DNA from: Dehalococcoidia bacterium
GTDB taxonomy: Bacteria > Chloroflexota > Dehalococcoidia > Lucifugimonadales > UBA3495
Assembly: GCA_965203985.1 (NCBI GenBank)
Contig: CBDBDS010000005.1
Coordinates: forward strand, 10,074 to 74,073
DNA: 64,000 nucleotides
Direction of reading: 5' to 3'
This document shows, piece after piece, positions 2,540 through 60,400 of the stretch. Below the pieces are notes generated by a model that ran no database searches, was not told where the DNA came from, and saw nothing but the letters and a program-made list of their open reading frames with translations. Position 1 is the stretch's first letter. Each line of letters begins with the position of its first letter. The position numbers were made by a program, and so were the translations under genes.

Positions 2540-2599
2540 ACCTGCTCGTATCCGCTACGGCAGCGGCCCGTACCACCGGGCCAAGATCTCGTCCACCTT
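2451..2599 (+). repeat. ~149-bp direct repeat copy 1 (Uma2 3' end + lipoprotein 3' end)
   Basis: Aligns by eye with 3083-3231 at roughly 90% identity. Confidence 0.9.
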
Positions 2600-2669
2600 C
2601 GACGCGCCCGCCGCCGGCCGGAATACCCCTCCGCGCCGGTATAATGGAAAAAGCAGCCACACGTGAGGC

Positions 2670-3050
2670 TTGATGATGGGAACTTTCACCTACCCCATAG
2701 AAGTCATTTCGGCGGACGGCAACACCTCCGAGACAGTGGAGGCGACCGTTGACACCGGTTCCACTTACACTTGCCTGCCAGCAACCCTGCTGCAGAGGCT
2801 CGGGATAGCGCCCGTTGAGCGCATCAAATCGGAACTGGCCGACGGTAGTATTGTCGAAGATGCCGTCGGCGAAGTGCGTGTCAGGGTAGAGGGAGTCGAG
2901 CGATCTACCATCGTCATCTTCGCCGAAGAAGGCGCTCCCGCCCTGCTCGGCGCCTACACCCTCGAAGGCGCGCTGCTCGTCGTTGACCCGGTGCGGCAGC
3001 GGCTGGCGCCAACCCACGCGCTGCGGTATGGGAACTGGGTAATACAATGA
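2670..3050 (+). CDS. clan AA (retropepsin-like) aspartic protease
   Basis: VDTGSTYT catalytic motif and LLGAYTLE C-terminal motif; TATAAT at 2640-2645. Confidence 0.85.
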   Translation: MMMGTFTYPIEVISADGNTSETVEATVDTGSTYTCLPATLLQRLGIAPVERIKSELADGSIVEDAVGEVRVRVEGVERSTIVIFAEEGAPALLGAYTLEGALLVVDPVRQRLAPTHALRYGNWVIQ

Positions 3051-3082
3051 TCGAAACTATTCCTCTGGAAGTCTTCTCCGCC

Positions 3083-3231
3083 GCATCAGCCCCCGCACCT
3101 TCCCCGACCTGGTACCGGCGGTGTCCGACTTCATGCCACCGGCCGGGCCGGACAGCGCCGAAACGCTCTAGACCTGCTCGTGTCCCCTACGGCAGCGGCC
3201 CGTACCACCGGGCCACGATCTCGTCCACCTT
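3083..3231 (+). repeat. ~149-bp direct repeat copy 2
   Basis: Partner of 2451-2599; 632-bp offset. Confidence 0.9.
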
Positions 3232-4920: not shown

Positions 4921-4980
4921 GGATCGCCCTCCCAATTCAGGGCGGCATGATAGCACGGGGCCAATCAGCCCGCGGGACCA

Positions 4981-5033
4981 GTGCCGTATAACGCCGTCCG
5001 CCGGAGGTTCCGCCATGATCCTCATCCTGACCA
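4981..5033 (+). repeat. copy of amidohydrolase promoter/RBS/first codons (copy 1 of 3)
   Basis: gtgccgtataacgccgtccgccggaggttccgccATGatcctcatcctgacc matches 5692-5757 and 5903-5958. Confidence 0.85.
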
Positions 5034-5189
5034 TCGACGAACTGCTCGCCGGAGCGGGCGTTTCGTATCCGCGTGGCGGCGCGCCGGCCACCTTCCGCCC
5101 GGCTCCGCGCCGTCGCCGCAGCCAAGGCCGGCAGAGCAGCTTGGTCTGACGCCAGTACCCTCTCCACCCGTCATCCCAGCCCTCACCCT

Positions 5190-5216
5190 GTCATTGCGAG
5201 CGCAGTGCGGCAATCC
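5190..5216 (+). repeat. GTCATTGCGAG-type palindromic element, half copy
   Basis: gtcattgcgagcgcagtgcggcaatcc, same family as 15130, 34513 and 61383. Confidence 0.7.
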
Positions 5217-5248
5217 CGTCGGCTCGGCGCCCACGCGCCAACCAACCC

Positions 5249-5291
5249 AATCCTGTTAAATCATAAAATCCTGTAAATCCTGCTTCAGACA
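5249..5291 (+). repeat. AATCCTG-rich palindromic element (family B), right half only
   Basis: aatcctgttaaatcataaaatcctgtaaatcctgcttcagac matches the right arms of 11654, 30242 and 60291. Confidence 0.75.
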
Positions 5292-5691
5292 TCCCCCTTG
5301 ATCTGTTCAGAACGTGCGTGCTATACTGGCTTTGCAGGCGAGATATTCACGTCCCGACCAGGTCTCAAGCGAAAACGGCCACCCAGATCAGCATCCAAGT
5401 CGCTAAACGGCGTCATGGGAGACTGTCTCTGATCATATTACTCAGGGTAGTCGCCCGGCCACCGGGCCCGCCACAGCCCGCCGTGCCGTGGGCACGGACA
5501 ATGAGAGCAAAAAACACAGCGCAACACCCCCGGCCGTGGGGCTGATAACCGCTCCGAGACCTGGTCGCCAATCACAAATCCACCGCCTGCGCCACCACAA
5601 TCCTGGAGGCAGTCCATCGCAGCATAAACCTCGCTTCTCCGGTCGGCAGCGGTCATCGCCTGTGCCCTGCCGACCCGCAACCCTCCGGCCC

Positions 5692-5757
5692 GTGCCGTAT
5701 AATGCCGTCCGCCGGAGGTTCCGCCATGTCCCTGATCCTGACCAACTCCAACCTCAT
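5692..5757 (+). repeat. copy of amidohydrolase promoter/RBS/first codons (copy 2 of 3)
   Basis: TATAAT + GGAGG + ATG tcc ctg atc ctg acc aac tcc aac ctc (MSLILTNSNL) versus real gene MTLILTNANL. Confidence 0.85.
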
Positions 5758-5923
5758 AAAATCCCGGCTGCGGTTTTGGCGGCGATCAAAGAGTCCATAA
5801 CGGCCGCCGCGTCGTAACGTATCCAACGCTGGGGCCGCAGATAACGGCTTACGTTTGCAGAGGTCATTTCCGGCTCATTTCAGTTTCATTTCGGCTTCGT
5901 TTCCGTCCGCCGGAGGTTCCGCC

Positions 5924-7123
5924 ATGACCCTCATCTTGACCAACGCCAACCTCATCGACTGTGTGCACGAGGGCGTGACGCCGGATGCCACCGTGGTAAT
6001 TGACGACGACCGCATCGTCGAGGTTGGCGCCGGCAGGGCCAGCGCATCCGGCGCAACGGTGATCGACCTGCGGGGTGCGTTCCTGATGCCCGGCCTGTGG
6101 GACGTGCACATCCATCCTGAGTATCCTGTCCCGCCCGGCACCACCGTGGCCCAGGAGACCGCCAATTTCGGCCGCGCCCTTTCCCTGGCGCTGACCGAGG
6201 GCGGCGTCACCGCCGTGCGCTGCGGCGGCGCGGCACACTTCATGGACGTGGCCTGGAAGCGCGCCTTCGACTCCGGCGACGTGGTCGGGCCTCGCGTTTT
6301 CGCCTCGGGCTACTTCCTGACCACCACCGGCGGCCACTTCCTCACCTCGGGACAGGCGAGGGAGTGCGACGGGCCCTACGGCTTCGTCCAGGCCATCCGC
6401 GAGCAGATCAAGAACGGCGTGGACCACATCAAGCTGAACCTCACCGGCGGCATCATGGGGCCGGACTGGGACCGCCACTGGCATTCATTCTTCCTGGAGG
6501 ATGAGCTAACCGCCGCCTTCGCCATCGCCCGCCAACGCGAGTTTCCGGTGATGGCCCACGCGGCCAACCCCGACGCCGTCAAGTCCGCCCTGTGCCTGGG
6601 CGCGCATACCGTCGAGCACGGCTACATCATGGACGAGGAGTGCATCGCCACCCTGGCCGAGTCGCCCACCTGGTACGTGCCCACCCTGGCCATCTCCCAC
6701 CTGACCGATGGGCAGGCCCAAAACGAATACGAAAGGCGCTGGCTGGCCCAGCGCAACATCGCCCAGGAGTTGCAGTGCCGCGCCGACGCTGCCTCCGACG
6801 AGCACGCCTACTGGTTCCGCCGCGCCCTGGACTCCGGGGCGAAGATGGCGCTGGGCTCGGACATCCGCCCCCTGCGCGAGGCCGCCCTGCTGGAGATGGG
6901 CCTGTGGGTTCGCGACGGCGCCACCACCTGGCAGACCCTGATCGCCGCCACCCGCAACGCCGCCGAGCTGTGTCTGGTCGGCGACCGGCTGGGTACCGTG
7001 GAGGCCGGCAAACTCGCCGACCTCATCGTAGTGGGCGCCAACCCGCTGGACGACATCAACAACCTGCGGCAGTTGCGGCTGGTGATTAAAGACGGGCGGG
7101 TAGTTTCGGATAAGCGGGGGTAA
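5924..7123 (+). CDS. metal-dependent amidohydrolase family protein
   Basis: IDL.G.FLMPGLWDVHIH, GVDHIK, AHA, EHG, G.VEAGKLADLIVV motifs; GGAGG RBS. Confidence 0.92.
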   Translation: MTLILTNANLIDCVHEGVTPDATVVIDDDRIVEVGAGRASASGATVIDLRGAFLMPGLWDVHIHPEYPVPPGTTVAQETANFGRALSLALTEGGVTAVRCGGAAHFMDVAWKRAFDSGDVVGPRVFASGYFLTTTGGHFLTSGQARECDGPYGFVQAIREQIKNGVDHIKLNLTGGIMGPDWDRHWHSFFLEDELTAAFAIARQREFPVMAHAANPDAVKSALCLGAHTVEHGYIMDEECIATLAESPTWYVPTLAISHLTDGQAQNEYERRWLAQRNIAQELQCRADAASDEHAYWFRRALDSGAKMALGSDIRPLREAALLEMGLWVRDGATTWQTLIAATRNAAELCLVGDRLGTVEAGKLADLIVVGANPLDDINNLRQLRLVIKDGRVVSDKRG

Positions 7124-11631: not shown

Positions 11632-11653
11632 GATTGCTCCTTACAAGGAGTAC

Positions 11654-11745
11654 GTCAGAAGCAGGATTTACAGGATTAGGAGATTTTCAGGATCAGATGG
11701 CCCCAATCCGGTAAATCCTCTAATCCAGCAAATCCTGCTTCTGAC
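11654..11745. repeat. family B palindromic element (MITE/REP-like)
   Basis: gtcagaagcaggattt...aaatcctgcttctgac terminal inverted repeats. Confidence 0.85.
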
Positions 11746-11764
11746 ATTACATTTTCGACAATCA

Positions 11765-23792: not shown

Positions 23793-23897
23793 ACCCTGCG
23801 CCTAGCCTACGGATTGTCACATTCACATGGGACGCCGGTCCACAGCGTTCAGGTCACACGTTGCGCGACGACGCCTCAAATCCGCAAGGAGGCACAA

Positions 23898-25259
23898 ATG
23901 CTTTCGGCCACGAAATCACTTTCAGGCAACGGGGTACTCAGTCACGGCGTCGCCGCGGTGCGAGAGTACCCATTCTCGCTGCGGCGGACGCTGCTGGCGC
24001 TGGCGGTCGGTCTGCTGGCAGTCGGTCTGCTGGCTACCTACAACGCGGTGTTCGCGCAGGATGACGGACCCACCACCGAGTGGCTCAATGGCTACTCCGA
24101 CAACATCGTTACGGTGGTCGCCGCCGCCCTGGTCTTCTTCATGCAGGCCGGCTTCGCCTTCCTGGGCGCCGGTCTCATCCGCTCCAAGAACACCACCAAC
24201 TACCTCACCAAGTCCTTCATGGACTTCGCCATCGCGTCGCTGGGCTTCTGGGCCTTCGGCTTCGCGTTCATGCTGGGCGACACCGCGGGTGGGTTCATCG
24301 GCCTGACCGGCTGGTTCCTGACCTCCGGCGACTACGTGGGCTGGATCTTCCAGATGGTCTTCGCCGCCACCGCCGCCACCATCGTGGCCGGCGCCATGGC
24401 CGAGCGCACCAAGCTGCAGACTTATCTGGCCTACAGCTTCATCGTCTCCGCGCTGATCTACCCCATCTACGGGCACTGGGTCTGGGGCGACGGCTGGCTG
24501 TCTGCAATGGGCGCCCTGGACTACGCCGGTTCCGGCGTGGTGCACGCGGTGGGCGGTTTCGTGGCCCTGACCGGCGCGGTCGTGGTCGGCCCCCGCATGG
24601 GCAAGTTCGTCAACGGCGTGGCGCAGGAGCTGCCCGCGCACAGCACCCCCTTCGTGGTGGTGGGCACCTTCATCCTGTTCTTCGGTTGGTTCGGCTTCAA
24701 CATCGGTTGGGGCGACGACATCGGCCTGAACGCGGTCAACACGCTGCTGTCGGGAGCCACCGGCGCGGTCGTGGCAATGTACATCACGCTGATCGTGAAG
24801 GGCAAGGCCGACATCCTGATGGCGTGCAACGGCGCGCTGGCCGGCCTGGTGGGTATCACCGCGCCCGTGAATTTCGTGGATCCCTGGGCCGCCGTGGTCA
24901 TCGGCGCCATCGCTGCGCCCGTCATGTACGGCTCCGTGATGTTCATGGAGCGGGTCCTCAAAATCGACGACCCGGTGGGCGCCATCAGCGTGCACGGCGT
25001 GACCGGTCTGTGGGGCCTGCTGGCCATTGCCATCTTCCACAAGGACGGTGGCCTGGTGGGCGGCAGCGCGTCGCTGCTGGTGCCGCAGATCGTCAGCATG
25101 GTTGCTGTCCTGGTCTGGTCGCTGGTCACCGGTTTCGCGCTGTTCTTCCTGCTGAAGTTCAGCATGGGCGTGCGCGTCAGCGAAGAGGAAGAGATGCAGG
25201 GCCTGGACATCTCCGAGCACGGCATCCAGACCTACCCCGAATCGGCCGCTACCAGCTAG
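23898..25259 (+). CDS. amtB: ammonium transporter
   Basis: FFMQAGFAFL.AG, FQMVFAAT..TIV.GAMAER, DYAGSGVVH, DDPVGA.SVHG; AAGGAGG RBS. Confidence 0.95.
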   Translation: MLSATKSLSGNGVLSHGVAAVREYPFSLRRTLLALAVGLLAVGLLATYNAVFAQDDGPTTEWLNGYSDNIVTVVAAALVFFMQAGFAFLGAGLIRSKNTTNYLTKSFMDFAIASLGFWAFGFAFMLGDTAGGFIGLTGWFLTSGDYVGWIFQMVFAATAATIVAGAMAERTKLQTYLAYSFIVSALIYPIYGHWVWGDGWLSAMGALDYAGSGVVHAVGGFVALTGAVVVGPRMGKFVNGVAQELPAHSTPFVVVGTFILFFGWFGFNIGWGDDIGLNAVNTLLSGATGAVVAMYITLIVKGKADILMACNGALAGLVGITAPVNFVDPWAAVVIGAIAAPVMYGSVMFMERVLKIDDPVGAISVHGVTGLWGLLAIAIFHKDGGLVGGSASLLVPQIVSMVAVLVWSLVTGFALFFLLKFSMGVRVSEEEEMQGLDISEHGIQTYPESAATS

Positions 25260-25290
25260 CGCACCAATACAGACATTCTCTCTCCTCATG

Positions 25291-25333
25291 GCGAGGGCCG
25301 GGGGTTGTGGCCACCTCCGGCTCTCGTTTTTTT
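25291..25333 (+). terminator. intrinsic terminator after amtB1
   Basis: gagggccggggg..ttgt..ccacctccggctctc hairpin followed by T7. Confidence 0.75.
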
Positions 25334-25508
25334 GACTCCTCAGGTATTGCCCCCGCGGCGACGGTCCATAGGCGAGGCTATGCGGGCTCTACTGCCACAA
25401 ACGCCGTAGAATTGACAAGCCCAAAAGGCAGCGTATACGATCTCAATCGTATAATAGTGGAACCGCGTTGCTGGACCGCGGGATCTTTGACCGCCCAGGT
25501 GCTACCCC

Positions 25509-27785
25509 ATGTTACTGAGCGACACTGCATTCGAAAACGCCGTCAATGAAACGGCACGCCATCTTTGGCCGCAAGCAGCTTACTCCGGTTCGACCACATA
25601 CGGAGGGCGCGAACGCGACGGTGTCTTCGAAACAGACGAAATGGTACACATGATCGAAAGTACCACATCGCGGCGCAAAGAGAAAGCCGAGCAAGATACG
25701 AAAAAACTTGCTCGGCTGGCCAAGAACATGCAATCCCAGCACCCAATGAAAGGAGTGAAGGGATATTTTATAACGCGAGATGAACCCACGGCCGAGCAAC
25801 GAGATGCCGTAAGGCGATTCGGTGACGGGCTAGTTGTCAGCCTCTCGTATTCGCAATTCCGTCGTCAGATGATCGATGCTCAATCCTATCTAGATTGTCG
25901 GATAGATTACCCATTCGGCAGCATGTTTGATAGAGACACCGAATCGCGGACCGAAACCGCCGATTTGATATCTCCCCAATTCACCACGGAGAGAGGGGAT
26001 ATATTGCGTGTATCGAACATCATACAGAGCCTCGCCCAAGGAGATGGTTTTGTTTTGGTGGGAGATTATGGAGCTGGCAAGAGCACCGCTTTGCGCGAAG
26101 TGTTCGTAGCGTTACGATCGAAATATTTTTCCGAGAATCAGACCGGCCGCTTCCCAGTTCACTTGAACCTAAGAGACCACCACGGGCAAACCAACCCTGC
26201 TGAAGCCCTGGAACGCCATGCTCGGAACGTAGGGTTTCAGTCCCCGACTCACTTAGTAAGGGCATGGCACGCGGGTTATCTTACGTTGATCCTAGACGGG
26301 TTCGATGAATTCGCGACGGTAGGTTGGTCAGGCCAAGCTAAACTGCTGCGGGACATCAGGTACACGTCGATGGAGTTAATCCGCAACTTCATGCGCGGTC
26401 CATCGGACACGGGTATCATGATTGCGGGTCGCCAACACTACTTTGACAGCTACTCGGAGCTGTCGCGCAGTCTCGGGTTGCGGCAGCAGACCACACGTCT
26501 TTATATCAATGACTTTAACGAAGATCAGATTCGAGAGTTCCTTTCGAAAAAAGGGTGGAGTGAGGGTATCCCGGCGTGGCTCCCATCTAGACCTTTATTG
26601 CTTGGTTATTTGTTCTCAAGAGGCATGCTGGACCAAGTGATGACGGTAGATCATGGCTCTAGTCCTGCTGCCGGGTGGAACGTTTTTCTCGAACTCACAG
26701 CGCAGAGAGAAGCGGAAATCGAGGCTGGCGTTGACGGAACCGCAGTGCGGCAGATCGTTGAGAACCTGGCGACCAAAGCCCGCAGCAAAAACGATGGCAT
26801 GAGTTCACTGTCGCAAGACGACATTTTGGGTTCATTTCAAAGCGTCTGCGGATTTTCACCCGACGACCGAGGTTTGCTATTGCTTCAAAGACTACCCGGC
26901 TTGGGGGCATCGAGCAGTGACGACGGTTCCCGGGATTTCATAGACGCAGATTTGGTGGATGCCGCCCGGGCGGGGGATGTTTCTCGGTTCGTCGAGGATC
27001 CCTTTACTTTCCATCTCGAGAACCCGAATGCGTGGCAAATTACCCTTGGCCAACTCGGCATAGAGCTTGCTACTTTGCGTTGTCATCAAATGGCGTTCAA
27101 CCAAGGCAAACTGCGGACTGCGGTCCAGCAAGCGGGTAGAGACGGTGAGCAAGGTGCTCTCTGCATGGACCTAGTGCAAGTCTCTAAGGAAATGGGTTTC
27201 GGTTTCACTGGGCAACCAATCACCGTGAGAAATATAATGGTTGCAGACGCCTCATTCGGAGATGATTCTTTAGATTTTTCGAGAATTTCATTCCATGATT
27301 GCCTGTTTCAGCGGTTGGAAATTAGCGGGTCGGCCGATGCGTCACTACTCCCGCATTTTTACGAAAGTTATGTTGGCACCCTTGATGGGCGAGTTTCCAA
27401 AGGGGACTTGCCTCCAAACATATTCGACAGTAAATGTGTTTTCGATTCATTCGGGGACAGTTCGCAAAATACGGCTGCCATATTGGCTTTGCCATTGTCG
27501 AACGGGGCCAAGGTGCTGTTGACAGTTTTGAAAAAACTGTACCTCCAACCAGGGGCTGGCAGAAAGCAATCAGCACTTTTTAGGGGTCTTGACCATCGCT
27601 CCCGGGCTTTGGTGCCGGATGTGTTGCAATTGTTAGTCGCGGAAGGTCTTACGGTCCGGTCTACAGTTGGGGAAGAACCGGTTTGGCTCCCTGTTCGGGA
27701 TGAGGGTGTCCGGGTGCGACGATTAGTGTCATCCCCAATAGGAAGCAACGACCGCTTGCTGAGCGCGGCAAACTCGTTGCGTTGA
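25509..27785 (+). CDS. nuclease-like N-terminus fused to NACHT/STAND NTPase (putative defence protein)
   Basis: RERDGVF..HMIEST..K (PD-(D/E)XK-like); Walker A GDYGAGKST; Walker B LILDGFDE; low GC. Confidence 0.75.
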   Translation: MLLSDTAFENAVNETARHLWPQAAYSGSTTYGGRERDGVFETDEMVHMIESTTSRRKEKAEQDTKKLARLAKNMQSQHPMKGVKGYFITRDEPTAEQRDAVRRFGDGLVVSLSYSQFRRQMIDAQSYLDCRIDYPFGSMFDRDTESRTETADLISPQFTTERGDILRVSNIIQSLAQGDGFVLVGDYGAGKSTALREVFVALRSKYFSENQTGRFPVHLNLRDHHGQTNPAEALERHARNVGFQSPTHLVRAWHAGYLTLILDGFDEFATVGWSGQAKLLRDIRYTSMELIRNFMRGPSDTGIMIAGRQHYFDSYSELSRSLGLRQQTTRLYINDFNEDQIREFLSKKGWSEGIPAWLPSRPLLLGYLFSRGMLDQVMTVDHGSSPAAGWNVFLELTAQREAEIEAGVDGTAVRQIVENLATKARSKNDGMSSLSQDDILGSFQSVCGFSPDDRGLLLLQRLPGLGASSSDDGSRDFIDADLVDAARAGDVSRFVEDPFTFHLENPNAWQITLGQLGIELATLRCHQMAFNQGKLRTAVQQAGRDGEQGALCMDLVQVSKEMGFGFTGQPITVRNIMVADASFGDDSLDFSRISFHDCLFQRLEISGSADASLLPHFYESYVGTLDGRVSKGDLPPNIFDSKCVFDSFGDSSQNTAAILALPLSNGAKVLLTVLKKLYLQPGAGRKQSALFRGLDHRSRALVPDVLQLLVAEGLTVRSTVGEEPVWLPVRDEGVRVRRLVSSPIGSNDRLLSAANSLR

Positions 27786-27853
27786 AGATATGCGGCGGAC
27801 TTCTGACGACCTCCCAGCGCCATTTTCCCGAGCGGCACTTGCCAGTTGAGTCT

Positions 27854-28208
27854 CTACCCCAGCGAGCCCATCCACTCCGCAACCGCCTGCCCAATCTCCG
27901 CCGGCGCGTCCTCCTGGATGAAGTGGTAGCCCGGGACCGTTACCCCCGTCTGGTTGGGCCAGGCGCGGCAGTGCTCGCGTTGGGCGCCGGTTAGGATGAC
28001 GCCCTGGTCGGCGTTGATGAACAGCTTGGGGACGTTGCTGGCGGACAGCCACCGGGAGTAGTCGTCGACGATAGCCACCACGTCGGCCGGCTCGCCGTCC
28101 AGGGGGATCTGCCGGGGCCAGGTCAGGGTCGGGCGGCGGGACTCGCCGGGCCCCAGGTAGGCCCAGTGGAACGCTAGGGCAGAACCCCGGCACGTCGCCC
28201 TGTCCGGT
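27854..28208 (-). pseudogene. internally deleted copy of the haloalkane dehalogenase gene
   Basis: Mosaic of DTGQGD, ALAFHWAY and ESRRPTLTWPRQIPLDG..EWMGSLG segments matching 31686-32570. Confidence 0.85.
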
Positions 28209-28335
28209 ATCTCCGCACGGCATCCAGACCTACCCCGAGTCGTGCTCCGACAGCTAACGCTCAGCGCGCGCCCCAACGACGTTTCCTCTCTATCACTGCG
28301 AGGGCCGGGGGTTGTGGCCACCCTCGGCTCTCGTT
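28209..28335 (+). repeat. diverged copy of amtB1 3' end and terminator
   Basis: atctccgcacggcatccagacctaccccga and gcgagggccgggggttgtggccacc match 25209-25328. Confidence 0.9.
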
Positions 28336-28576
28336 CTTGGTCGATCTCACCGACCGTTTTCAGAGACTCAACAGTAGAGTGCCGCCTGACACAGTCCTCT
28401 CGATGTTGGCCGTATTATCCTTTCAGGCCAACCGCCTTTACCTCGCTGCCCATAAGTCGCGCGGACATGGTCGGTTCGGGACGCATATGGTTCCCGACCC
28501 TTGGATTGGCAATGACGCAATAGCGGACGGACTTCCGCAACGCTCCAATCCGGGCGAAACAGGCCGTAGGTATAAG

Positions 28577-30052
28577 CTACCGGTCCGGCCTGACCCGCAC
28601 CGCGTTGGCCTCGACTTCTCGTTCGGTCTCCGACCTCCGGCGGCGCTTGGCTGACCGCTGCTCCCGCGTCCATGATTTGCGGGTGAACTGGCGACCCAGG
28701 CCACGCTCGATCTCGCGCCACTTACGGTCTTCGTCCGGCGTGATGAACGTGATGGCCTCGCCGGCGCGTCCCATGCGGCCGGTGCGGCCCACCCGGTGGG
28801 TGAACAGCTGCTCCGAGTCGGGGAGATCGTAATTGATGACCTGTCCAATGCCCTCGACGTCCAGGCCTCGCGCCGCCACGTTGGTGGCAACCAGAATCGG
28901 CGCGACCCCCGAGCGGAAGTCCTTCATCACCCGCTCGCGGGCGACCTGGCTGAGGTTGCCCTGCAGGGCGCCCACCGGGTAACCCGCCTCATCCAGTTGT
29001 CTGGCCAGTCTCTTGACGCCGTGCTTGGTCTTCCCGAACACGAGGACCGGCGCCCCGTCCCGGCGATCCAGCAGGATGCGCAGCGCCTCCATCTTGTCGG
29101 TCTTCTGGATGCTGTAAACCAGGTGCTCCACGCTGGGCAGGGTTTCGAAATCGGCGTCCACCGCCACGGTGACCGGATCATGGAGGTGTTTTCTGGCGGT
29201 CTTCACCACCCAGTCCGGCACGGTGGCCGAGAATAGCGCAGTCTGCCGTTGGGTCGGAGTCTCGCTCAAAATGGCGTCGACGTCGCGGGCGAAACCCCTG
29301 TCGAGCATCTCGTCAGCTTCGTCCAGCACCAGGAATCGCACCGATCTCAGCTTCAGGCTGCCCTGCCGGACGTGATCCAATGTCCGGCCCGGGGTGCCGA
29401 TGATGATCTGCGCGCCCTGCTGCAACGCCCGGTGGTCCTTGCCCACCGACCGCCCACCGTACAACAGGGTGACGTGCAGCCCCTGCGGTCGGGCGAGGTC
29501 CTCCACGACGCCGCCCACCTGGATGGCCAACTCGCGGGTCGGCACCAGGACCAGCGCCTGCACCTGCCTGGCGGTGGCGTCGCACTGTTCCACCAGCGGG
29601 ACCGCAAAGGCCAGGGTTTTGCCGGATCCGGTGCGGGCCTGGCCAATGAGATCGCGGCCTTCCAGCAACGGCGGGATCGACTGCTCCTGTATCGGCGTGG
29701 GGTCGGAGATGTTCATGCCCGCGATGGCGGTTCTGGTCCCGGGATTCAGCACCATGCCGGGAAAGACGGATTCGCGTGCAGCGGCTTCAGACCGGCGTTC
29801 ACTAGCGGAGACCGCCGGAGATGCCGATTTGCGACCCTCCGCAGGACGGGAAGAAGCGACACCGTTGCGCCGCAGGTACAGGCAGGAGGGACAATAAACC
29901 GGCCGACCCTCTGTCGGCCGGAAAGGAACGGTGGTGTCGTCTCGGCAGTCCGCGCAAACGGCGGCGTGCCGTTGTGGTCGGTTGATCTGTGGGCTGTAGG
30001 TATGTTTGCGATTATTGGAGCGTGTACCAGTCTGACGGGGTTGAAATGGCAT
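28577..30052 (-). CDS. DEAD-box RNA helicase with N-terminal CxxC-x17-CxxC zinc ribbon
   Basis: PTPIQ, ARTGSGKT, PTRELA, DEAD, SAT, HRVGRTGR; CADC-x17-CPSC. Confidence 0.95.
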   Translation of the reverse strand: MPFQPRQTGTRSNNRKHTYSPQINRPQRHAAVCADCRDDTTVPFRPTEGRPVYCPSCLYLRRNGVASSRPAEGRKSASPAVSASERRSEAAARESVFPGMVLNPGTRTAIAGMNISDPTPIQEQSIPPLLEGRDLIGQARTGSGKTLAFAVPLVEQCDATARQVQALVLVPTRELAIQVGGVVEDLARPQGLHVTLLYGGRSVGKDHRALQQGAQIIIGTPGRTLDHVRQGSLKLRSVRFLVLDEADEMLDRGFARDVDAILSETPTQRQTALFSATVPDWVVKTARKHLHDPVTVAVDADFETLPSVEHLVYSIQKTDKMEALRILLDRRDGAPVLVFGKTKHGVKRLARQLDEAGYPVGALQGNLSQVARERVMKDFRSGVAPILVATNVAARGLDVEGIGQVINYDLPDSEQLFTHRVGRTGRMGRAGEAITFITPDEDRKWREIERGLGRQFTRKSWTREQRSAKRRRRSETEREVEANAVRVRPDR

Positions 30053-30241
30053 GTAGAGAAAGACTCCTTGGTCTCGACAGGAAAAGAATGGGCGGCGCCT
30101 CGCGCCGAGCAAAACCGTGCATTATGATGAAGTTCGTTGCTGCAAAAACCATCAATGCAATTTATCGGACACATCCATTGTAACAGCGCCCCACCGTGGT
30201 CAGCGTCGCTGTGGTCTCGTGCGTACGTAGTTCCGTAAATC

Positions 30242-30351
30242 GTCAGAACCTTGATTTTCAAGATTTGGTGATTATCAGGATTAGTACCGTTCTGTGATGG
30301 ATCTCTCCCAATCCTGCCCAATCATAAAATCCCGCAAATCCTGCTTCTGAC
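30242..30351. repeat. family B palindromic element
   Basis: gtcagaa...ttctgac; closely similar to 60291-60400. Confidence 0.85.
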
Positions 30352-30401
30352 GTTCCCACGCCGCAAGCGGGGCACTCATCAGGCGAGACCGCTCTGGCAC
30401 C

Positions 30402-31667
30402 GTGCGAACCACGGGGGTATACTGGCGCCACATTTTCATACTGCGTATCTGGATACGAGATTTCGACAACTCCGCAGCAGCAGATAAAGAGGGAAGGATT
30501 ATCGCCAACGATACGGTGGGCCCGCCGCACAGCGAACCAGCTAGCAACCGGGGACTCGCAGACGCCACGGCGGGCATTTTGGATGGACGGCAACGCAACG
30601 AGGAATATTTCAAGCTACGGCGTTTGATATTGGAGCACGGGCTCCTGGATCGGCAATACGCTTATTACGCAGTCAAGGTAGCAGTCGCACTCGCGTTTCT
30701 CATCGCCAGCGCGGTCATACTGGTCGTTGTTGACAGCCTGTGGGTGCAGATGCTGAACGTGGCCCTGATGGCAGTCGCGTTCGGCCAGTTCGCCTTCCTG
30801 GGGCACGACTCCGGACACCGTCAGGTCTTCCGGTCGGTGAAGCGTAACGACATGCTCATGATGCTGGCGGCGCTGGTCACGGGTATGGCGCCCAGTTGGT
30901 GGCAGGAAAAGCACATCAAGCATCACGTCATTCCTAACCAGATCGGGCATGATGGCGACATCGAGGTTTCGGTTTTTGCTTTCACCCGCGGGCAGGCTCT
31001 GGAGTCGTGGGGAGTTGCGCGGTTCTTCGTCCGCCATCAAGCCTTCTGGTTCTATCCGATGCTCATGTTCACGTCGTACAGTCTGCTGTTCGCGGGCATC
31101 GTCTTCCTGGCGCGGCCGAAGGGGCTGAAGCATCCGGTCCTGGAACCCATCGTCGTGGCAACCGCGATTGCGGCCTATCTGGCCCTGGTTTTCGCATTCC
31201 TGCCCTTCTGGCACGGGGTCCTGTTCATCGTAGTCCATCGATCTCTGACCGGATTGCACTTGGGCTCAGTGTTTGCTCCCAATCACAAGGGAATGCCGAT
31301 CCTGGGACCCGATACCGAGCTCGATCACCTGCGGCAGCAGGTGCTGACGTCCCGGAACGTCATTCCCAACCCTGTTGTCGATTACATGTACGGCGGGTTG
31401 AACTACCAGATTGAGCACCACCTCTTCCCCAACATGCCTCGCAACCGGCTGAAGGATGCACGGCCCGTGATCAAGGCGTTCTGCGCCGACCACGGGGTTC
31501 CCTATCACGAGACGGGTTTCTGGCGGTCCAATGGCGAGATACTGAGCTATCTGCACGCGGTGAGCGCTCCGCTGCGTCAAAACCGGCGCAAGCCCATGAG
31601 CAGCCTGGACCGCGTGGCCGGAGGTCGCGCTGTGCTGCGGCAGCGGCCGGGGTATGCCCTCTTCTGA
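30402..31667 (+). CDS. membrane fatty acid (acyl-CoA) desaturase
   Basis: His boxes HDSGH, HIKHH, QIEHHLFP; start uncertain. Confidence 0.92.
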   Translation: MRTTGVYWRHIFILRIWIRDFDNSAAADKEGRIIANDTVGPPHSEPASNRGLADATAGILDGRQRNEEYFKLRRLILEHGLLDRQYAYYAVKVAVALAFLIASAVILVVVDSLWVQMLNVALMAVAFGQFAFLGHDSGHRQVFRSVKRNDMLMMLAALVTGMAPSWWQEKHIKHHVIPNQIGHDGDIEVSVFAFTRGQALESWGVARFFVRHQAFWFYPMLMFTSYSLLFAGIVFLARPKGLKHPVLEPIVVATAIAAYLALVFAFLPFWHGVLFIVVHRSLTGLHLGSVFAPNHKGMPILGPDTELDHLRQQVLTSRNVIPNPVVDYMYGGLNYQIEHHLFPNMPRNRLKDARPVIKAFCADHGVPYHETGFWRSNGEILSYLHAVSAPLRQNRRKPMSSLDRVAGGRAVLRQRPGYALF

Positions 31668-31685
31668 ACGGACCTGACAGCGCCA

Positions 31686-32570
31686 CTACCCCAGCGCGGC
31701 CAACCAGTCTGCGATGGCGTGGCCGATTTCGGCGGGGGAGTCCTCCTGGATGAAGTGGTAGCCCGGGACGGTGACCTCGGTTTGGTTGGGCCAGGCGCGG
31801 CAGTGTTCGCGCTGGGCGCCGGTGAGGATGACGCCGGGGTCGGCGTTGATGAACAGCTTGGGGACGTTGCTGGTGGACAGCCATTGGGAGTAGGCATCGA
31901 CGATGGCCACCACGTCGGCGGGCTCGCCGTCCAGAGGGATCTGCCGGGGCCAGGTCAGGGTTGGGCGGCGGGACTCGCCGGGCTCGACGTAGGGACGGCG
32001 GTAGACCTCCATCTCCGGCTCGGTCAGGCCGCGGATCACGCTGGCCGGCAGGATGCGCTCGACGAATACATTGCGCTCCAGGATGATCTGCTCGCCGTCG
32101 GGGGAGCGCATGGACTGGAACAGCCCGCGGGAACGCTCGGGCCACTCCTCCCACGCCAGGGGTCGGACGATGGCCTCCATGTAGGCGATCCCCTTGACCC
32201 GATCCTGGTGTCGGTAGGCCCAGTGGAATGCCAGGGCCGAGCCCCAATCGTGAGCGACCAGGGTGACGTTCTCGGTCAAGCCCAGGGCATCGAACCAGGC
32301 GTCCAGGTAGCGGGCGTGGTCGACGAACCGGTAGGAGCCGTCGGGAGCCCGGTCCGACTCGCCCATACCCAGCAGGTCGGGGGCCAGGCAGCGGGCCATG
32401 CCGGACACGTGGGGGATGACGTTGCGCCACAGGTAGGACGAGGTGGGGTTGCCGTGCAGAAACACCACCGGGTCGCCCTGGCCGGTGTCCACGGTGGATA
32501 GCTCCACGTCCAGGGCCGGCACCCGGCGTCGGGGATGGGGATCGGTAGGGGAGATGGGCTGATCGGCCAT
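31686..32570 (-). CDS. dhaA: haloalkane dehalogenase
   Basis: FLHGNPTSSYLWRN, APDLLGMG, HDWG, RRPTLTWPRQIP, G.HFIQED. Confidence 0.93.
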   Translation of the reverse strand: MADQPISPTDPHPRRRVPALDVELSTVDTGQGDPVVFLHGNPTSSYLWRNVIPHVSGMARCLAPDLLGMGESDRAPDGSYRFVDHARYLDAWFDALGLTENVTLVAHDWGSALAFHWAYRHQDRVKGIAYMEAIVRPLAWEEWPERSRGLFQSMRSPDGEQIILERNVFVERILPASVIRGLTEPEMEVYRRPYVEPGESRRPTLTWPRQIPLDGEPADVVAIVDAYSQWLSTSNVPKLFINADPGVILTGAQREHCRAWPNQTEVTVPGYHFIQEDSPAEIGHAIADWLAALG

Positions 32571-32809: not shown

Positions 32810-34486
32810 ATGCCGGAGTTTGACTTGGTAATTCGCGGTGGAACCGTAATCGACGGCACCGGCCTGCCCCGCATCCGCGCCGACGTCGGAATCAAGGACG
32901 GGCGGGTGGCCATGATCAGCGGGCGCATCAGCTCGGCCGGGGCCAAAGAGCTGGACGCCAGCGGGTGCATCGTCGCGCCGGGCGCGGTGGACCTGCACAC
33001 GCACTACGATGCGCAACTGAACTGGGACCCCTACGCGTCGCTGTCGGGATGGTTCGGCGTGACCTCCCTGACCGTGGGGCAGTGCGGTTTCGGCTTCGCG
33101 CCGACGCGGCCCGAGGACCGGGACCTGAACATGCGCATGATGAACCGCATCGAGGCGATCCCGCTGGAGTCGATGCGCCTGGGCATGCGCTGGGACTGGG
33201 AGACCTTCCCCGAATACATGGACAGCCTGGACCGCCAGGGCCTGGGGGTGAACGTCGGCGCGCTGGTGCCCTTCTCCCCGCTGCGGGGCTACGTGCTGGG
33301 CATGATCCCGGCGCGGGAGCGCACCTCGGTCACCGAGGCCGAGCTGAACCAAATGAAGCAGATCCTGTACGACTCCATGAAGGCGGGGGCGTTCGGGTTG
33401 TCCGCCGACAAGAACCTGGAGGACCGCCCCGAGGACGGCAGCTGGCTGCCCAGCCACGTGGCATCGCCGGAGGAGTTCTACGCGCTGTCCCAGGTCCTGA
33501 GCCAGTTCGGCGTCGGCCACCTGGGCTGGACCATCGGCATCTCCGACGACCGGCCCGGCCAGCGGGAGATGCTGGCGGAGATGGTGCGCATGAGCGGGCG
33601 CCCGCTGCACGTCGCGCTGGGCGACGAGGAGGGCTACGACTGGCTGGAGGAAGTCCGGCAGGAAGGGCTCCCCGTGCTGGCGCAGCAGGGCTCGGTGCCG
33701 ACCATCGCCGAGTTCAAGCTCTCCGAGTACAACCTGTTCGACTACATGCCCAACTGGGTGCAGCCGCTGGTGGGCACCAAGGAGGAGCGCATCGCCAAGC
33801 TGTCCGAGGACGGCATCCGCTCCGGCATGAAACGCGACGTCATCGAGCGGCCCCACGCGCGGACTGACTGGACGCAGGTGCAGGTGGTCGAGGTGGCGCT
33901 GGAACGGAACCTCAAATATGAGGGCCTGTCCATCGCCGACATCGCCGAAGCTGAGGGCAAGCACCCGCTGGACGTGTTCCTGGACATCGCCTTGGACGAG
34001 GACCTCGAGACCGAGTTCGCCCACCCGGCCGGCGGGCAGGGCGACGACGCGCGGGCCGAGCGGCTGGTCAACCCCTTCGTCCACATCTCGGTGTCGGACG
34101 GCGGCGCGCACACGCGGTTCCTGGTCAACAGCGTGTGGCCGGTGTATTTCCTGGGTCACTGGATCCGCGACAACGAGCTGATGAGCCTGGAGCAGGCGCA
34201 CCAGAAGATGAGCGCGCTGCCGGCGGCGTTCTCCGACATGAAGGGTCGTGGCACGCTGCGCGTCGGCGACTATGCCGATGTCATGATCTACAACATGGAC
34301 GAGCTGGGACTGCTGTACGACAAGCCACGGTTCGAGACCGACTTCCCCGGCGGCGAGAAGCGGCTGGTGCAGAAGCCCACCGGCATCCGCTACATCCTGG
34401 TCAACGGCGTGGTGACATTCGTCGAGAACGAGTGCACCGGCGAGCTGCCCGGCAAGTTGCTGCGCAGCTACGACATGGTCGGATAG
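32810..34486 (+). CDS. N-acyl-D-amino-acid deacylase-like amidohydrolase
   Basis: PGAVDLHTHYDAQ, GVTS..GQCG, SDGGAH, G.LRVGDYAD. Confidence 0.92.
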   Translation: MPEFDLVIRGGTVIDGTGLPRIRADVGIKDGRVAMISGRISSAGAKELDASGCIVAPGAVDLHTHYDAQLNWDPYASLSGWFGVTSLTVGQCGFGFAPTRPEDRDLNMRMMNRIEAIPLESMRLGMRWDWETFPEYMDSLDRQGLGVNVGALVPFSPLRGYVLGMIPARERTSVTEAELNQMKQILYDSMKAGAFGLSADKNLEDRPEDGSWLPSHVASPEEFYALSQVLSQFGVGHLGWTIGISDDRPGQREMLAEMVRMSGRPLHVALGDEEGYDWLEEVRQEGLPVLAQQGSVPTIAEFKLSEYNLFDYMPNWVQPLVGTKEERIAKLSEDGIRSGMKRDVIERPHARTDWTQVQVVEVALERNLKYEGLSIADIAEAEGKHPLDVFLDIALDEDLETEFAHPAGGQGDDARAERLVNPFVHISVSDGGAHTRFLVNSVWPVYFLGHWIRDNELMSLEQAHQKMSALPAAFSDMKGRGTLRVGDYADVMIYNMDELGLLYDKPRFETDFPGGEKRLVQKPTGIRYILVNGVVTFVENECTGELPGKLLRSYDMVG

Positions 34487-38316: not shown

Positions 38317-38466
38317 ACCGGATACCTAAATTTATGCGGTAAATACTTGGCCGATCCACGCATCGCGGTGCCACCGTTCCCGGCATGGTCATCCGCTCCC
38401 GAGCGGGCCGCGACGGCGATGCGACTAACCACGATTAGCGGTCAACGTCAGTGGGGAGATAGAGAT

Positions 38467-39687
38467 ATGGAGTTCAGCGAATTTGAAGTGCTGTCGTTTC
38501 TGATTTCGGCGGCCCTGGTGTTCCTGATGGTGCCCGGCCTGGCGCTGTTCTACGGCGGGCTGGTGCGCCACAAGAACGTAATCGGCACGATGATGCACTC
38601 CATCACCGCCATCGGTGTGGTCAGCGTGCTGTGGGTGCTCTGGGGCTACAGCCTCGCCTTCAGCACCAGCGTCGGCGGCCTGGGCTTCGTGGGCGACCTG
38701 GGCAAGTTCGGCATGGTCGGCGTCGGACTGGACGAACAGGCCTTCATGATCTTCCAGGGCATGTTCGCCATCATCACCGTGGCGCTGATCGCCGGCGGGT
38801 TCGCCGAGCGGTTCAAGTTTCAGTCCTACATCATCTTCGCCGCCCTGTGGGTGACCATTGTGTACGCCCCGCTGTGCCACTGGGTTTGGGGCGGCGGATG
38901 GCTCGGCAAACTGGGCCCACTGCTGGGGATGAGCGAAGCCGGATTTGCCCTGGACTTTGCCGGCGGCACCGTGGTCCACATCGCATCGGGCACGGCCGCC
39001 CTGGCCGCCGCTCTGATCGTGGGGCGTCGCAGCGGCTTCGGCACGGCGACCCTGGCTCCCGACAACGTTCCGCTGGTGCTGCTGGGCGCCGGCCTGCTGT
39101 GGTTCGGCTGGTTCGGCTTCAACGCCGGCAGCAGCTTCGATCTGACCACCGAGAGCGCGGCCAACGCCTTCGTGGTTACCAACGTGGCGGCAGCCACCGC
39201 CATGTCCTCCTGGTCCATCATCTCCTGGTTCATCACCAAGCGCCCGTCGGCCAGCGGTGCCGCCGCGGGCGCAGTTGCCGGCCTGGTGGCGATCACTCCC
39301 GCCGCGGGCTTTGTGGGCGTCATGCCCGCCATCATTATCGGCGCCGGGGCCGGCGGAGCCTGCTTCATCGCCGTCGAGCTGATGCACAAGTTCCGCATCG
39401 ACGACTCCCTCGACGTGTTTGGCATCCACGGCATCGGCGGCATGTGGGGCGCGCTGGCGACGGGAATTTTCGTCGGCATCGGCTTCGGCGCGCTGGACGC
39501 CGACGTCACGCGCATCGAGCAAATCCTGTACCAGATTATCGGCATCGCCGCCGCCTTCGCCTGGTCATTCGTGATTTCCGCCATCATCCTGCTGGCATTG
39601 AAGTACACCATCGGCCTCCGCGTTTCCGACCAGGAAGAGGAGATCGGCGTGGACCTGACGCAGCATGGCGAGAGGATGAACATCTAG
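38467..39687 (+). CDS. amtB: ammonium transporter (second paralog)
   Basis: LMVPGLALFYGGLV, FQGMFAIIT.ALI.G..AER, DFAGGTVVH, DDSLDVFGIHG. Confidence 0.95.
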   Translation: MEFSEFEVLSFLISAALVFLMVPGLALFYGGLVRHKNVIGTMMHSITAIGVVSVLWVLWGYSLAFSTSVGGLGFVGDLGKFGMVGVGLDEQAFMIFQGMFAIITVALIAGGFAERFKFQSYIIFAALWVTIVYAPLCHWVWGGGWLGKLGPLLGMSEAGFALDFAGGTVVHIASGTAALAAALIVGRRSGFGTATLAPDNVPLVLLGAGLLWFGWFGFNAGSSFDLTTESAANAFVVTNVAAATAMSSWSIISWFITKRPSASGAAAGAVAGLVAITPAAGFVGVMPAIIIGAGAGGACFIAVELMHKFRIDDSLDVFGIHGIGGMWGALATGIFVGIGFGALDADVTRIEQILYQIIGIAAAFAWSFVISAIILLALKYTIGLRVSDQEEEIGVDLTQHGERMNI

Positions 39688-60112: not shown

Positions 60113-60290
60113 CAGTTAAGCTGCTCCTTACTCTGGCTTACGGTCGATTGCGCGACCGCACAGGTTGAGCAGGTACTTCGTTCTCGCTTGGATCACTTTC
60201 CCCACAATTCGCCTGCCTAATAATACTTATACCGCACGCAAATTGCAACCGCAAAGCCCGAAGGCCATGCGCACCTCCCTTTCGCAAGTC

Positions 60291-60400
60291 GTCAGCAGCA
60301 GGATTTTCAAGATTTGGGGATTATCAGGATTGGAACCGTTTTGTGATGGAGATCTCCCAATCCTGCCCAATCATAAAATCCCGCAAATCCCGCTTCTGAC
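60291..60400. repeat. family B palindromic element
   Basis: Closely similar to 30242-30351. Confidence 0.85.

Follow-up and report, generated by a model that had tools for sequence, protein, structure and literature searches.

Where integrative elements and CIMEs accrete in tandem, and in the composite SCC arrays at rlmH, the repeats are recombinase att sites and the crossover is fixed. Minimal mobile elements (MMEs) are described as replacements. In Neisseria, as far as the account in PMC3787668 goes, MMEs change gene content through recombination in the flanking genes (Saunders & Snyder 2002; Snyder et al. 2007). Homology-facilitated illegitimate recombination (HFIR) is documented, within the scope of PMC2884548, in Acinetobacter baylyi, Pseudomonas stutzeri and Streptococcus pneumoniae (de Vries & Wackernagel 2002; Meier & Wackernagel 2003; Prudhomme et al. 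2002). The cDHS1 and cDHS2 sites of Pseudomonas aeruginosa are core defence hotspots, for which transfer through the conserved flanks has been proposed (PMC10250203).

Here we analyse the interval between amtB and dhaA on contig C5 of a genome (G000) from an uncultured Dehalococcoidia genus, within a window of 64,000 nucleotides (the whole stretch of DNA analysed). The pangenome comparison of the interval proposed in a preliminary description was done within the genus, with a set of 54 genomes in which about 20 amtB-dhaA loci were compared. The locus belongs to known kinds, the minimal mobile element and the core defence hotspot. We consider it reasonably probable that two alleles of the interval fused long ago through one homologous and one illegitimate join, in the manner of HFIR, and that recombination in the flanks then turned the resulting slots over.

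Results

The features of the locus are collected in Table 1. The amtB and dhaA genes are convergent. Residues 1-481 of AmtB are 92-99% identical in relatives at the amino-acid level, the product of dhaA scores 444 bits against NF002938 (cut-off 241), and amtB, dhaA and the amidohydrolase gene are homologous anchors (92-99% identity), the last, a very conserved gene, being a likely homology anchor.

Table 1. Features of the amtB-dhaA interval (window coordinates)
Feature	Position	Strand	Remarks
amtB, ammonium transporter, left core flank of the hotspot	23814..25259	+	PF00909 4.5e-116; TIGR00836 401 bits
True 3' end of amtB (final 14 codons) with short-type spacer, then intrinsic terminator; repeat copy 1	25217..25331	+	
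Slot 1, variable cargo segment	25332..27853	+	low GC, 48-54%, in G000
NACHT-domain STAND NTPase, 758 aa	25509..27785	+	PF05729 8.6e-09, residues 182-347
dhaA remnant piece 1, dhaA nt 588-885 (last ~100 codons and stop)	27854..28151	-	
dhaA remnant piece 2, dhaA nt 326-358, GSALAFHWAY (residue 112)	28156..28188	-	88% to 32213-32245
dhaA remnant piece 3, dhaA nt ~82-99, DTGQGD (residue 28)	28194..28214	-	ends at J1
amtB 3'-end copy 2 (HGIQTYPESCSDS, stop), longer allele-class spacer and terminator copy	28215..28338	+	
Spacer, J1 to helicase gene 3' end	28339..28576	.	90.6% identical to G014
DEAD-box RNA helicase, N-terminal CxxC zinc finger	28577..30112	-	PF00270, PF00271, PF23477
Membrane fatty-acid desaturase	30402..31667	+	PF00487 1.3e-36
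dhaA, intact haloalkane dehalogenase, right flank of the hotspot	31686..32570	-	NF002938, PF00561
Amidohydrolase, outer right flank	32810..34486	+	97-99.6% amino-acid identity in relatives

Between the NACHT gene and the set formed by the helicase, the desaturase and the intact dhaA lies a joint, J1, which we use to divide the interval into slot 1 (to its left) and slot 2 (to its right). At J1, a dhaA remnant in three pieces (27854-28214) is fused to a duplicate 3' end of amtB, followed by a terminator. The preliminary description had recognized the duplicated amtB end with its terminator and the three dhaA segments (DTGQGD, ALAFHWAY and the C-terminus); both repeats are recovered by self-comparison (25217-25262/28215-28260 and 25286-25331/28293-28338; 89%), both terminator copies fold as strong hairpins (25290-25328, -29.1 kcal/mol, and about 28298-28334, -28.6 kcal/mol), and translation confirms the segments. 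A joint was also correctly seen, but its placement at atctcc (28209) is a few bases too far left: alignment with relatives sets it between 28214 and 28215 (...TATCTNCG / CACGGCATCC...). Likewise, the gene order holds as described, except that the helicase gene lies on the minus strand. Piece 1 is about 88% identical to the intact dhaA over 300 nt (27854-28153/31686-31985; 88.3% to 31686-31983), and its reading frame is open in G000 and interrupted by a stop and a gap in G067; further, 28183-28214 matches 32461-32492. Microhomology at J1 is at most 2 nt. On the other side, the first ~34 nt of the spacer that follows the terminator copy continue the native amtB downstream context, as found in G004 and G053, and window positions 28209-28372 as a whole align with the true amtB downstream region of these two genomes. 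J1 itself reads as a dead scar; the terminator copy in it probably still keeps transcription of slot 1 apart from the helicase gene that runs towards it.

The NACHT gene in slot 1 is likely an NLR-like defence gene. Its product is recognized by Pfam alone, with zero matches in PADLOC or NCBIfam, and neither its N-terminal part (180 aa) nor its C-terminal part has a Pfam match. The gene is found in two of the 54 genomes, G000 and G063, and in the latter at another locus (C2, L046), beside an IS copy. DNA homology between the two is limited to 25404-27792, which roughly delimits a mobile unit that includes a promoter-like sequence (TTGACA-18-TACGAT, 25412-25441). Homology of the G000 interval to nine relatives stops at 25331-25334, the end of the terminator, and resumes at 27854 (G045), 27861 (G067), 28194 (G014) or 28233 (G047), so that the breaks of the variable segment fall where the conserved flanks end, at the terminator (25331/2) and the dhaA' stop (27854). 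Piece 1 would then be the right-hand homology arm of slot 1. A donor allele with the order amtB-NACHT-dhaA was not found among the 54 genomes. In slot 2, the best NCBIfam matches of the helicase are the RNA helicases CshA, DbpA and RhlE, each below the equivalog cut-off. The presence of the helicase-desaturase pair varies by genome; since G043 and G052 are without it, the pair is itself an alternative cargo.

Across the genus, about 20 loci are bounded by amtB at the left and by dhaA/amidohydrolase at the right, and the cargo they enclose is unrelated: Old, IetAS, Hachiman-like, type II R-M and Schlafen-STAND systems, solute-binding proteins and the helicase-desaturase pair. PADLOC recognizes Old (G045), IetA/IetS (G047), HamB (G063), type II R-M (G052 and G013) and a PDC-S50-like protein (G067); several recognized defence systems thus occur at one locus in different genomes. 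The comparison shows the interval to be a variable hotspot; the best reading, in which we place somewhat better than even confidence, is that it is an integrase-free one of the flanking-homology type in a subclade of the genus. The tandem arrangement of two amtB-dhaA alleles, suggested earlier for G000, agrees with the variable presence of the helicase-desaturase pair and with the existence of one-slot relatives, amtB-SBP-dhaA in G043 and amtB-RM/IS-dhaA in G052.

J1 is common to G000 and at least four other species, with identities to the G000 joint of 96% over 246 nt (G045), 92% (G067) and 93% (G014), and partial in G047. In an assembly of 15 contigs with 4.85% estimated contamination, one might suspect a metagenome-assembled contig in which the interval's versions from two strains had been merged. 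However, joint and order recur in four other independent assemblies, among them the single closed 4.3-Mb contig of G014, and their divergence tracks that of the flanks; moreover, the repeats, at 75-88% identity, are too diverged to mislead an assembler. The chance of an artefact is therefore negligible. The divergence of J1 among species (92-96%) resembles that of the flanks, which places J1 before these species. The slot beside it, in turn, holds the NACHT gene in G000, a methyltransferase and two ORFs, all small, in G045, a Schlafen-STAND gene in G067 and an SBP_bac_5 solute-binding protein in G014 and G047. From this varied cargo, and from the restriction of the NACHT gene to two genomes, in one of them elsewhere, the NACHT gene appears to be a late occupant, a replacement inside an old two-slot scaffold, and not a gene captured by the fusion as the preliminary description had it. 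The deletion of the redundant dhaA copy that was also postulated there stands: G014 retains about 50 nt of piece 3, more than G000, which indicates that the three-piece state arose by later deletions, and the dhaA' deletions are lineage-specific, with a set of their own in each of G014, G047 and G013.

Further joints exist. J2, in which dhaA nt ~750-885 are joined to amtB residues 417-481 inside an imperfect microhomology of about 30 nt (exact runs of 5-7 nt), gives three slots in G045 and G047; J3 (amtB residues 132-481) is found in G063 and J4 (residues 436-481) in G059, and other dhaA 3' stumps in G005, G009, G019, G051 and G059. Start points are residues 132, 417, 436 or 468 for the amtB fragments and nt ~82, 523, 578-588, 648 or 750 for those of dhaA. 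These breakpoints bear on site-specific tandem accretion, by which the amtB 3' end would be an att site and the NACHT segment an integrase-less, CIME-like remnant, mobilizable in cis, between attL and attR. Direct repeats of one gene's 3' end do bracket the segment, the 24-nt stretch GCACGGCATCCAGACCTACCCCGA and the hairpin show no difference between the two amtB-end copies, and a joint in G013 lies at the same amtB position. Yet the amtB breakpoints are inconstant, the variable segment stops at the dhaA' stop and not at the second amtB repeat, and the element would need to include part of dhaA, for which capture of the opposite flank is the sole explanation. Nor is an integrase found on the contig or among the slot ORFs examined. 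We regard this explanation as very improbable.

The absence of an integrase from view, noted before, extends to the contig: the genome has nine tyrosine recombinases, none of them on C5, and among the scanned slot ORFs no mobility gene is recognized save one DDE transposase (G052). G000 has a ComEC homologue, which alone is no proof of natural competence, and lacks Ku. An integron was considered and rejected, as the contig is without a tyrosine recombinase and the inter-cassette element consists of gene fragments and a terminator, not attC.

The two amtB ends of G000 belong to different allele classes. The end at J1 shows 92-96% identity with the J1 copies in G014, G045 and G067, but just 75-80% with any of those genomes' true amtB ends. 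It has the longer spacer found at the true ends of G009, G019, G004 and G053, whereas the true ends of the J1-bearing genomes are of the class shorter by 14 nt, which also provides the true ends of G043 and G063. In trees built on 130-308 nt, for a fusion event that is old, the J1 dhaA pieces form one clade (bootstrap 80%) beside the dhaA of G043 and G045 and apart from the resident copies. A 499-aa piece of RpoB neither recovered nor rejected the monophyly of the J1-bearing species. The alternative raised earlier, a simple old duplication with the remnant closest to the resident dhaA and no allelic variation in relatives, is borne out as to age but not as to affinity: the remnant is 90-91% identical to its J1 orthologues, up to 89.9% to the dhaA of other species and about 88% to the resident gene, and allelic variation is abundant. 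The same data weigh on in-situ tandem duplication, in which unequal or illegitimate exchange between sister chromosomes would have copied the stretch between the amtB end and dhaA codon ~27, the copies then diverging and losing or replacing their cargo independently. Such a duplication predicts an identical dhaA'-'amtB joint, the age of J1 leaves time for the divergence, and short-range repeats in the genome are in excess direct (37 direct against 4 inverted at spacings of 0.2-3 kb). Against it, slots 1 and 2 show zero trace of common cargo in any genome, each amtB class is a true end in different species, the J1 end runs on into sequence that is natively downstream in G004 and G053, and the two copies differ by 20-25% where orthologues differ by 4-8%. 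In-situ duplication is therefore conceivable but unlikely, and we retain the fusion of two alleles.

Similar loci, as first proposed, occur elsewhere in the window, with self-BLAST direct repeats of 155 nt (92%) at 2451-2605/3083-3237 and of 53-56 nt (91-92%) within 4978-5955. For the former (2451-3237), an empty site with a single repeat copy is present in G019, G004, G052 and G053. In the whole genome, about 25-30 loci have direct repeats of 60-350 nt around inserts of 0.4-6.5 kb, and direct repeats outnumber inverted ones 25:1 at short range but stand at 1:1 with them at long range. These observations, together with joints of 0-7 nt microhomology, suit a replicative template switch (MMBIR/FoSTeS-like) acting genome-wide, in which a stalled or broken fork would copy a homologous or foreign template and return upstream of its departure point, leaving a duplication that flanks a templated insertion. 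By sequence alone this route is inseparable from HFIR or Campbell insertion, and the breakpoints lie where flank homology ends, which is what recombination with a homologous partner would give; we hold it to be quite improbable.

The joint of G013 adds a different aspect, since this J1-like joint lies to the right of the desaturase, whereas in G000 it is left of the helicase. Either the cassettes were reshuffled, or a separate event struck the same amtB breakpoint. Possibly, though we rate this as rather unlikely, recombination, and not integrases, is in this lineage a regular device for stacking cassettes, with J1-like joints as portable landing pads: a terminator with two homology arms from the ends of convergent core genes, beside which single genes or small operons would be gained, lost again as excised circles and inserted anew on either side. 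Such a process would explain the two positions of the joint and the 25:1 excess, and it or its template-switching variant would account for the 25-30 other repeat-bracketed loci with small accessory genes.

Discussion

Under the favoured reading, the fusion of two alleles, cargo would by default be exchanged through homologous recombination in the conserved flanks, and in at least one event, long before the present species split, an allele would have been added rather than exchanged. One end would have joined homologously and the other illegitimately, dhaA codon ~27 meeting amtB codon ~468 of the other allele, to give amtB, cargo 1, dhaA'-'amtB end with terminator (J1), cargo 2 and dhaA. The dhaA' arm of about 300 nt and the amtB arm of about 125 nt may then have served as anchors for replacement in slot 1, with the promoter-bearing NACHT cassette of foreign composition as an endpoint proper to G000. 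The route may have been HFIR after DNA uptake or the formally equivalent Campbell-type insertion of a circularized fragment; one and the same joint is predicted by in-situ tandem duplication, Campbell insertion, HFIR and replicative template switching. On the best reading of these sequences, stacking would be an old, recurrent and integrase-free route of adding genes, often anti-phage.

The likeness to MMEs lies in differing whole-gene cargo within one conserved gene pair among close relatives, in cargo without mobility genes and in exchange ascribed to homologous recombination in the flanks. Here, however, alleles are also stacked in two or three slots, kept apart by dead joints that consist of 3' fragments from both flanking genes, and the host is an uncultured genus of Dehalococcoidia. 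With HFIR, as the cited account presents it, the locus would share a homologous anchor, an illegitimate joint at little or no microhomology and an additive, integrase-free integration. HFIR is defined there experimentally, in natural transformation, whereas here the end product is what is observed and the route is conjectured from it; moreover, the incoming DNA would here have been another, homologous allele of this locus, and the scar is accordingly made of both flanking genes. As in cDHS1 and cDHS2, core marker genes bound a site of changing, lower-GC defence systems without an integrase or element-derived scars; the amtB-dhaA interval does, in contrast, have scars of its flanking genes that record its growth, and its cargo is mixed, with solute-binding proteins and an RNA helicase and desaturase besides defence systems. 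As in tandem accretion, CIMEs and SCC arrays, successive modules, some of them integrase-less, are set apart by repeats of the 3' end of a gene, but the breakpoints vary here, the copied sequence includes the opposite flank as well and the contig shows no recombinase. The stacking at amtB-dhaA is a readable yet fairly ordinary case of genome plasticity.

Organization of the locus

The interval between the convergent genes amtB and dhaA, the latter for a haloalkane dehalogenase, holds two cargoes in the genome studied, G000 (4.4 Mb in 15 contigs, ~65% GC): a NACHT gene in slot 1, between the true amtB end and a dhaA remnant, and a helicase-desaturase pair in slot 2 (Table). The window covers positions 10074-74073 of contig C5 of this genome. 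The remnant abuts a second amtB 3' end at a joint that we call J1. This tandem layout had been proposed in the preliminary description and is borne out by the repeats, by translation and by the terminator folds, which are strong for both copies. Three pieces of dhaA make up the remnant (nt 588-885, at 88.3% identity; nt 326-358; nt ~82-99), and their translation gives, as had been read, DTGQGD, GSALAFHWAY and the final ~100 residues of the protein. Two readings had to be corrected. The DEAD-box helicase gene, formerly placed on the plus strand, lies on the minus strand, and the N-terminus of the NACHT protein (residues 1-180; window 25509-26050), formerly taken for a nuclease, has no match in Pfam, NCBIfam or PADLOC, so that this assignment was abandoned. 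The whole NACHT protein is likewise without a match in PADLOC or in an exact look-up, and an exact-pattern scan of JGI metagenome contigs for J1 gave none. The gap between the helicase and desaturase genes contains an intergenic element of ~120 nt (30231-30352; 88% identity between 30231-30351 and 60280-60400), also found at 5246-5296 and 11653-11748, with partial copies at other places in the window and in related genomes; the palindromic repeat families mentioned in the preliminary description may include it.

Table. Features of the amtB-dhaA interval of G000 (window positions) and examples of direct-repeat loci elsewhere in the genome (contig:positions)
Feature	Position	Strand	Remark
amtB	23814-25259	+	
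amtB terminator	25290-25328		hairpin; fold -29.1 kcal/mol
NACHT gene	25509-27785	+	
dhaA remnant	27854-28214	-	
Joint J1	28214/28215		
Second amtB 3' end and terminator	28215-28338	+	fold -28.6 kcal/mol
DEAD-box RNA helicase	28577-30112	-	
Fatty-acid desaturase	30402-31667	+	
Intact dhaA	31686-32570	-	
Amidohydrolase			after intact dhaA, last in gene order
Direct-repeat locus	C13:1393204-1394250		
Direct-repeat locus	C2:35816-36930		
Direct-repeat locus	C13:973815-974785		
Direct-repeat locus	C8:137664-138748		
Direct-repeat locus	C2:194331-195542		

Joints and cargoes in related genomes

About 20 orthologous loci were fetched from the genus (54 species genomes) and the window genes and the amtB end were mapped onto them; the amtB-dhaA interval is a hotspot. 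J1 recurs in G045 (96% over 246 nt against G000), in G067 (92%) and in G014 (93%; here the N-terminal dhaA piece is longer and the C-terminal piece absent), and in G047 its amtB half alone remains. G045 and G047 carry a further joint, J2, to the right of the desaturase gene, at which dhaA nt ~750-885 is joined to amtB residues 417-481; with J2 in addition to J1, these loci have three slots. The flanks of J2 are the same in the two genomes (G045, L048 8280-8740; G047, L049 9540-10000), but the point of the switch from dhaA-like to amtB-like sequence differs: it follows GCTGG in G045 and GCGGCAG in G047, in both within an imperfect microhomology of ~30 nt. The difference implies either that this patch was the site of two events or that gene conversion took place later. 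In G013 (L043 18100-18400) a joint resembling J1, which shares its amtB breakpoint CACGGCATCC and its spacer class, is found on the right of the desaturase gene, so that joint and cargo come in the opposite order to that of G000; this joint is followed by an AccI-type restriction-modification (R-M) pair and no intact dhaA is left. Other scars consist of an amtB fragment joined to cargo, not to dhaA (residues 132-481 in G063, 436-481 in G059). Stumps of the dhaA 3' end were also found in G005, G009, G019, G051 and G059; that of G059 was rejected as a copy of J1, because it continues as far as the start of dhaA and lacks an amtB end, and is a separate pseudogene.

Two relatives lack the helicase-desaturase pair: G043 has amtB, a solute-binding protein gene and dhaA, and G052 has a fused C5-methylase/PstI-type endonuclease, Vsr and a DDE transposase between the flank genes. 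The pair is thus itself an alternative cargo. By Pfam and PADLOC, the cargo of defence type comprises NACHT in G000, type II R-M systems in G052, G019, G004 and G013, and a HamB-like helicase in G063; single large defence-type genes fill the equivalent slots of G067, G047, G045 and G059. These last are, in G067, a 1224-aa Schlafen/AlbA_2 and STAND NTPase protein (L050 10780-14454); in G047, an IetS/IetA pair (L049 5693-9282); in G045, a 676-aa Old-family ATPase-TOPRIM protein (L048 5985-8015); and in G059, a 1036-aa LRR protein without a PADLOC match (L055 12688-15798). Non-defence cargo includes the SBP_bac_5 family of solute-binding proteins, in seven slots, SBP56 and the helicase-desaturase pair.

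Slot 1 of G000 has a GC content of 48-54%, against ~65% in its surroundings, and among the 54 genomes its NACHT gene is shared with G063 alone. The DNA homology between the two corresponds to window 25404-27792, a promoter-like site included. In G063 the gene occupies a different locus, beside an IS copy and an amtB paralogue. There (G063:C2, L046 9896-12284) it lies directly downstream of a repeated element of ~690 nt (L046 9177-9856), probably the IS, of which G000 has at least nine copies (on C13, C2, C6, C8 and C1), and ~800 nt from the paralogue, which corresponds to window ~38455-39671.

Origin and age of the tandem arrangement

The homology of G000 with nine relatives ends at 25331-25334, the end of the terminator T-run, and resumes at the stop of the remnant (27854, in G045) or slightly beyond it in others. 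These breaks indicate that slot 1 was replaced exactly between two homology arms. J1 and the helicase-desaturase block differ by 4-7% between species, similar to the flanks, and the divergence between the two amtB ends of any one genome is 20-25%. The putative fusion is thereby shown to be older than the species; a piece of RpoB, tried for ordering these, proved too conserved (95-96% across ~15 species).

A duplication in situ would also yield two amtB ends and two dhaA copies. However, the spacer is shorter by 14 nt at the true amtB ends of genomes with J1, and likewise in the J2 copies, while the amtB copy at J1 is of the longer class, known also from the true ends in G009, G019, G004 and G053, and it runs ~34 nt into the native amtB-downstream sequence of G004 and G053. 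Moreover, in allele trees built from short sequences, the dhaA pieces at J1 of G000, G045 and G067 make up one clade (bootstrap 80%), placed next to dhaA of G043 and G045 and not next to the resident copies. For the amtB piece at J2 of G045, amtB of G014 and of G047 are closer matches than amtB of G067, to which G045's own copy is most closely related (88%); the value for the own copy itself lay outside the best eight matches listed. Taken with the homology breaks and divergences given above, the spacer classes, the clade and the J2 affinities speak more for a fusion between two allele lineages than for duplication in situ.

The dN/dS of the remnant is 0.17-0.42, compared with 0.06-0.11 in intact dhaA copies, and its orthologue in G067 has one stop and one gap. 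We rejected purifying selection as evidence of function, because these values and the G067 stop indicate constraint that is relaxed, though not neutral. On this sequence evidence the remnant is a pseudogene, its decay perhaps slowed, or its sequence possibly refreshed, by gene conversion.

Mechanism of joining

Microhomology at J1 is at most 2 nt, and at J2 consists of runs of 5-7 nt within the imperfect 30-nt patch; the breakpoints are variable on both amtB and dhaA. No tyrosine recombinase was found on the contig, and this, together with the varying amtB breakpoints, led us to reject an integrase/att model. The joints are consistent with homology-facilitated illegitimate recombination (HFIR; references in PMC2884548), and the genome encodes ComEC. 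The single-crossover insertion of a circularised fragment, made up of an amtB end, cargo and a dhaA end, would fit equally well; circularisation by Ku-driven NHEJ was rejected, as a Ku gene is absent. By their sequence, the joints are also compatible with template switching, alongside HFIR and insertion of a circle. An inverted repeat around J1 (arms 27832-27855 and 28362-28385; 24 nt, 83% complementary) was dropped, since by our estimate chance would give two or three pairs of this kind in 14 kb; its arms have no further copy in the genome, and the left one is peculiar to G000. Between the repeats, exact identity extends over at most 36, 30 and 26 nt in dhaA and 24-25 nt in amtB. Runs of this length lie close to the minimum for RecA exchange, and they suit a structure that is both stable and still recombinable.

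Similar duplications elsewhere in the genome

The claim that this was the third such locus in 64 kb was upheld, and the signature is genome-wide. A self-BLAST of G000 (pairs of 50-400 nt, at least 84% identical) gave, at spacings of 0.2-3 kb, 37 direct and 4 inverted pairs (25 and 1 under stricter filters), against 11 and 11 at 8-20 kb and 34 and 33 at 20-100 kb. Some 25-30 direct pairs (60-350 nt, 86-98% identical) enclose small accessory genes, among them retropepsin-like, Uma2, PIN and T5orf172-like genes (examples in the Table). At window 2451-3237, a 155-nt block of two convergent gene ends is doubled (92%) around a 463-nt retropepsin-like insert; in G019, G004, G052 and G053 the site is empty and the block is present once, and the insert, without the block, is 96% identical to a stretch on another contig of G047 (C70:10558-11020). 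The locus thereby draws attention to a genus of Dehalococcoidia in whose genome short-range duplication-insertion events are in unusual excess.

Relation to known systems

The value of the locus is its legibility, with no fewer than four joints, as many as three slots and one scar common to five species. Its scars record that hotspots flanked by core genes are able to grow by addition, besides replacement, that the seams survive speciation and that single slots then turn over separately. We predict that one-sided homology and an illegitimate join would give stacked alleles in a competent laboratory strain. Our literature search returned papers on HFIR, minimal mobile elements (MMEs) and core defence hotspots, and no direct precedent for stacked alleles split by fragments of the flank genes. 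Defence hotspots flanked by core genes and free of mobile-element marks are known, and how they are built is open (PMC10250203). Here each seam is marked by fragments of both flank genes; this holds for several species, and the breakpoints include several independent ones. By the tests applied, the locus is neither an integrase-borne island nor an integron; in kind it is an MME (PMC3787668) or a core defence hotspot (PMC10250203), one in which growth by addition has left scars of the HFIR type.
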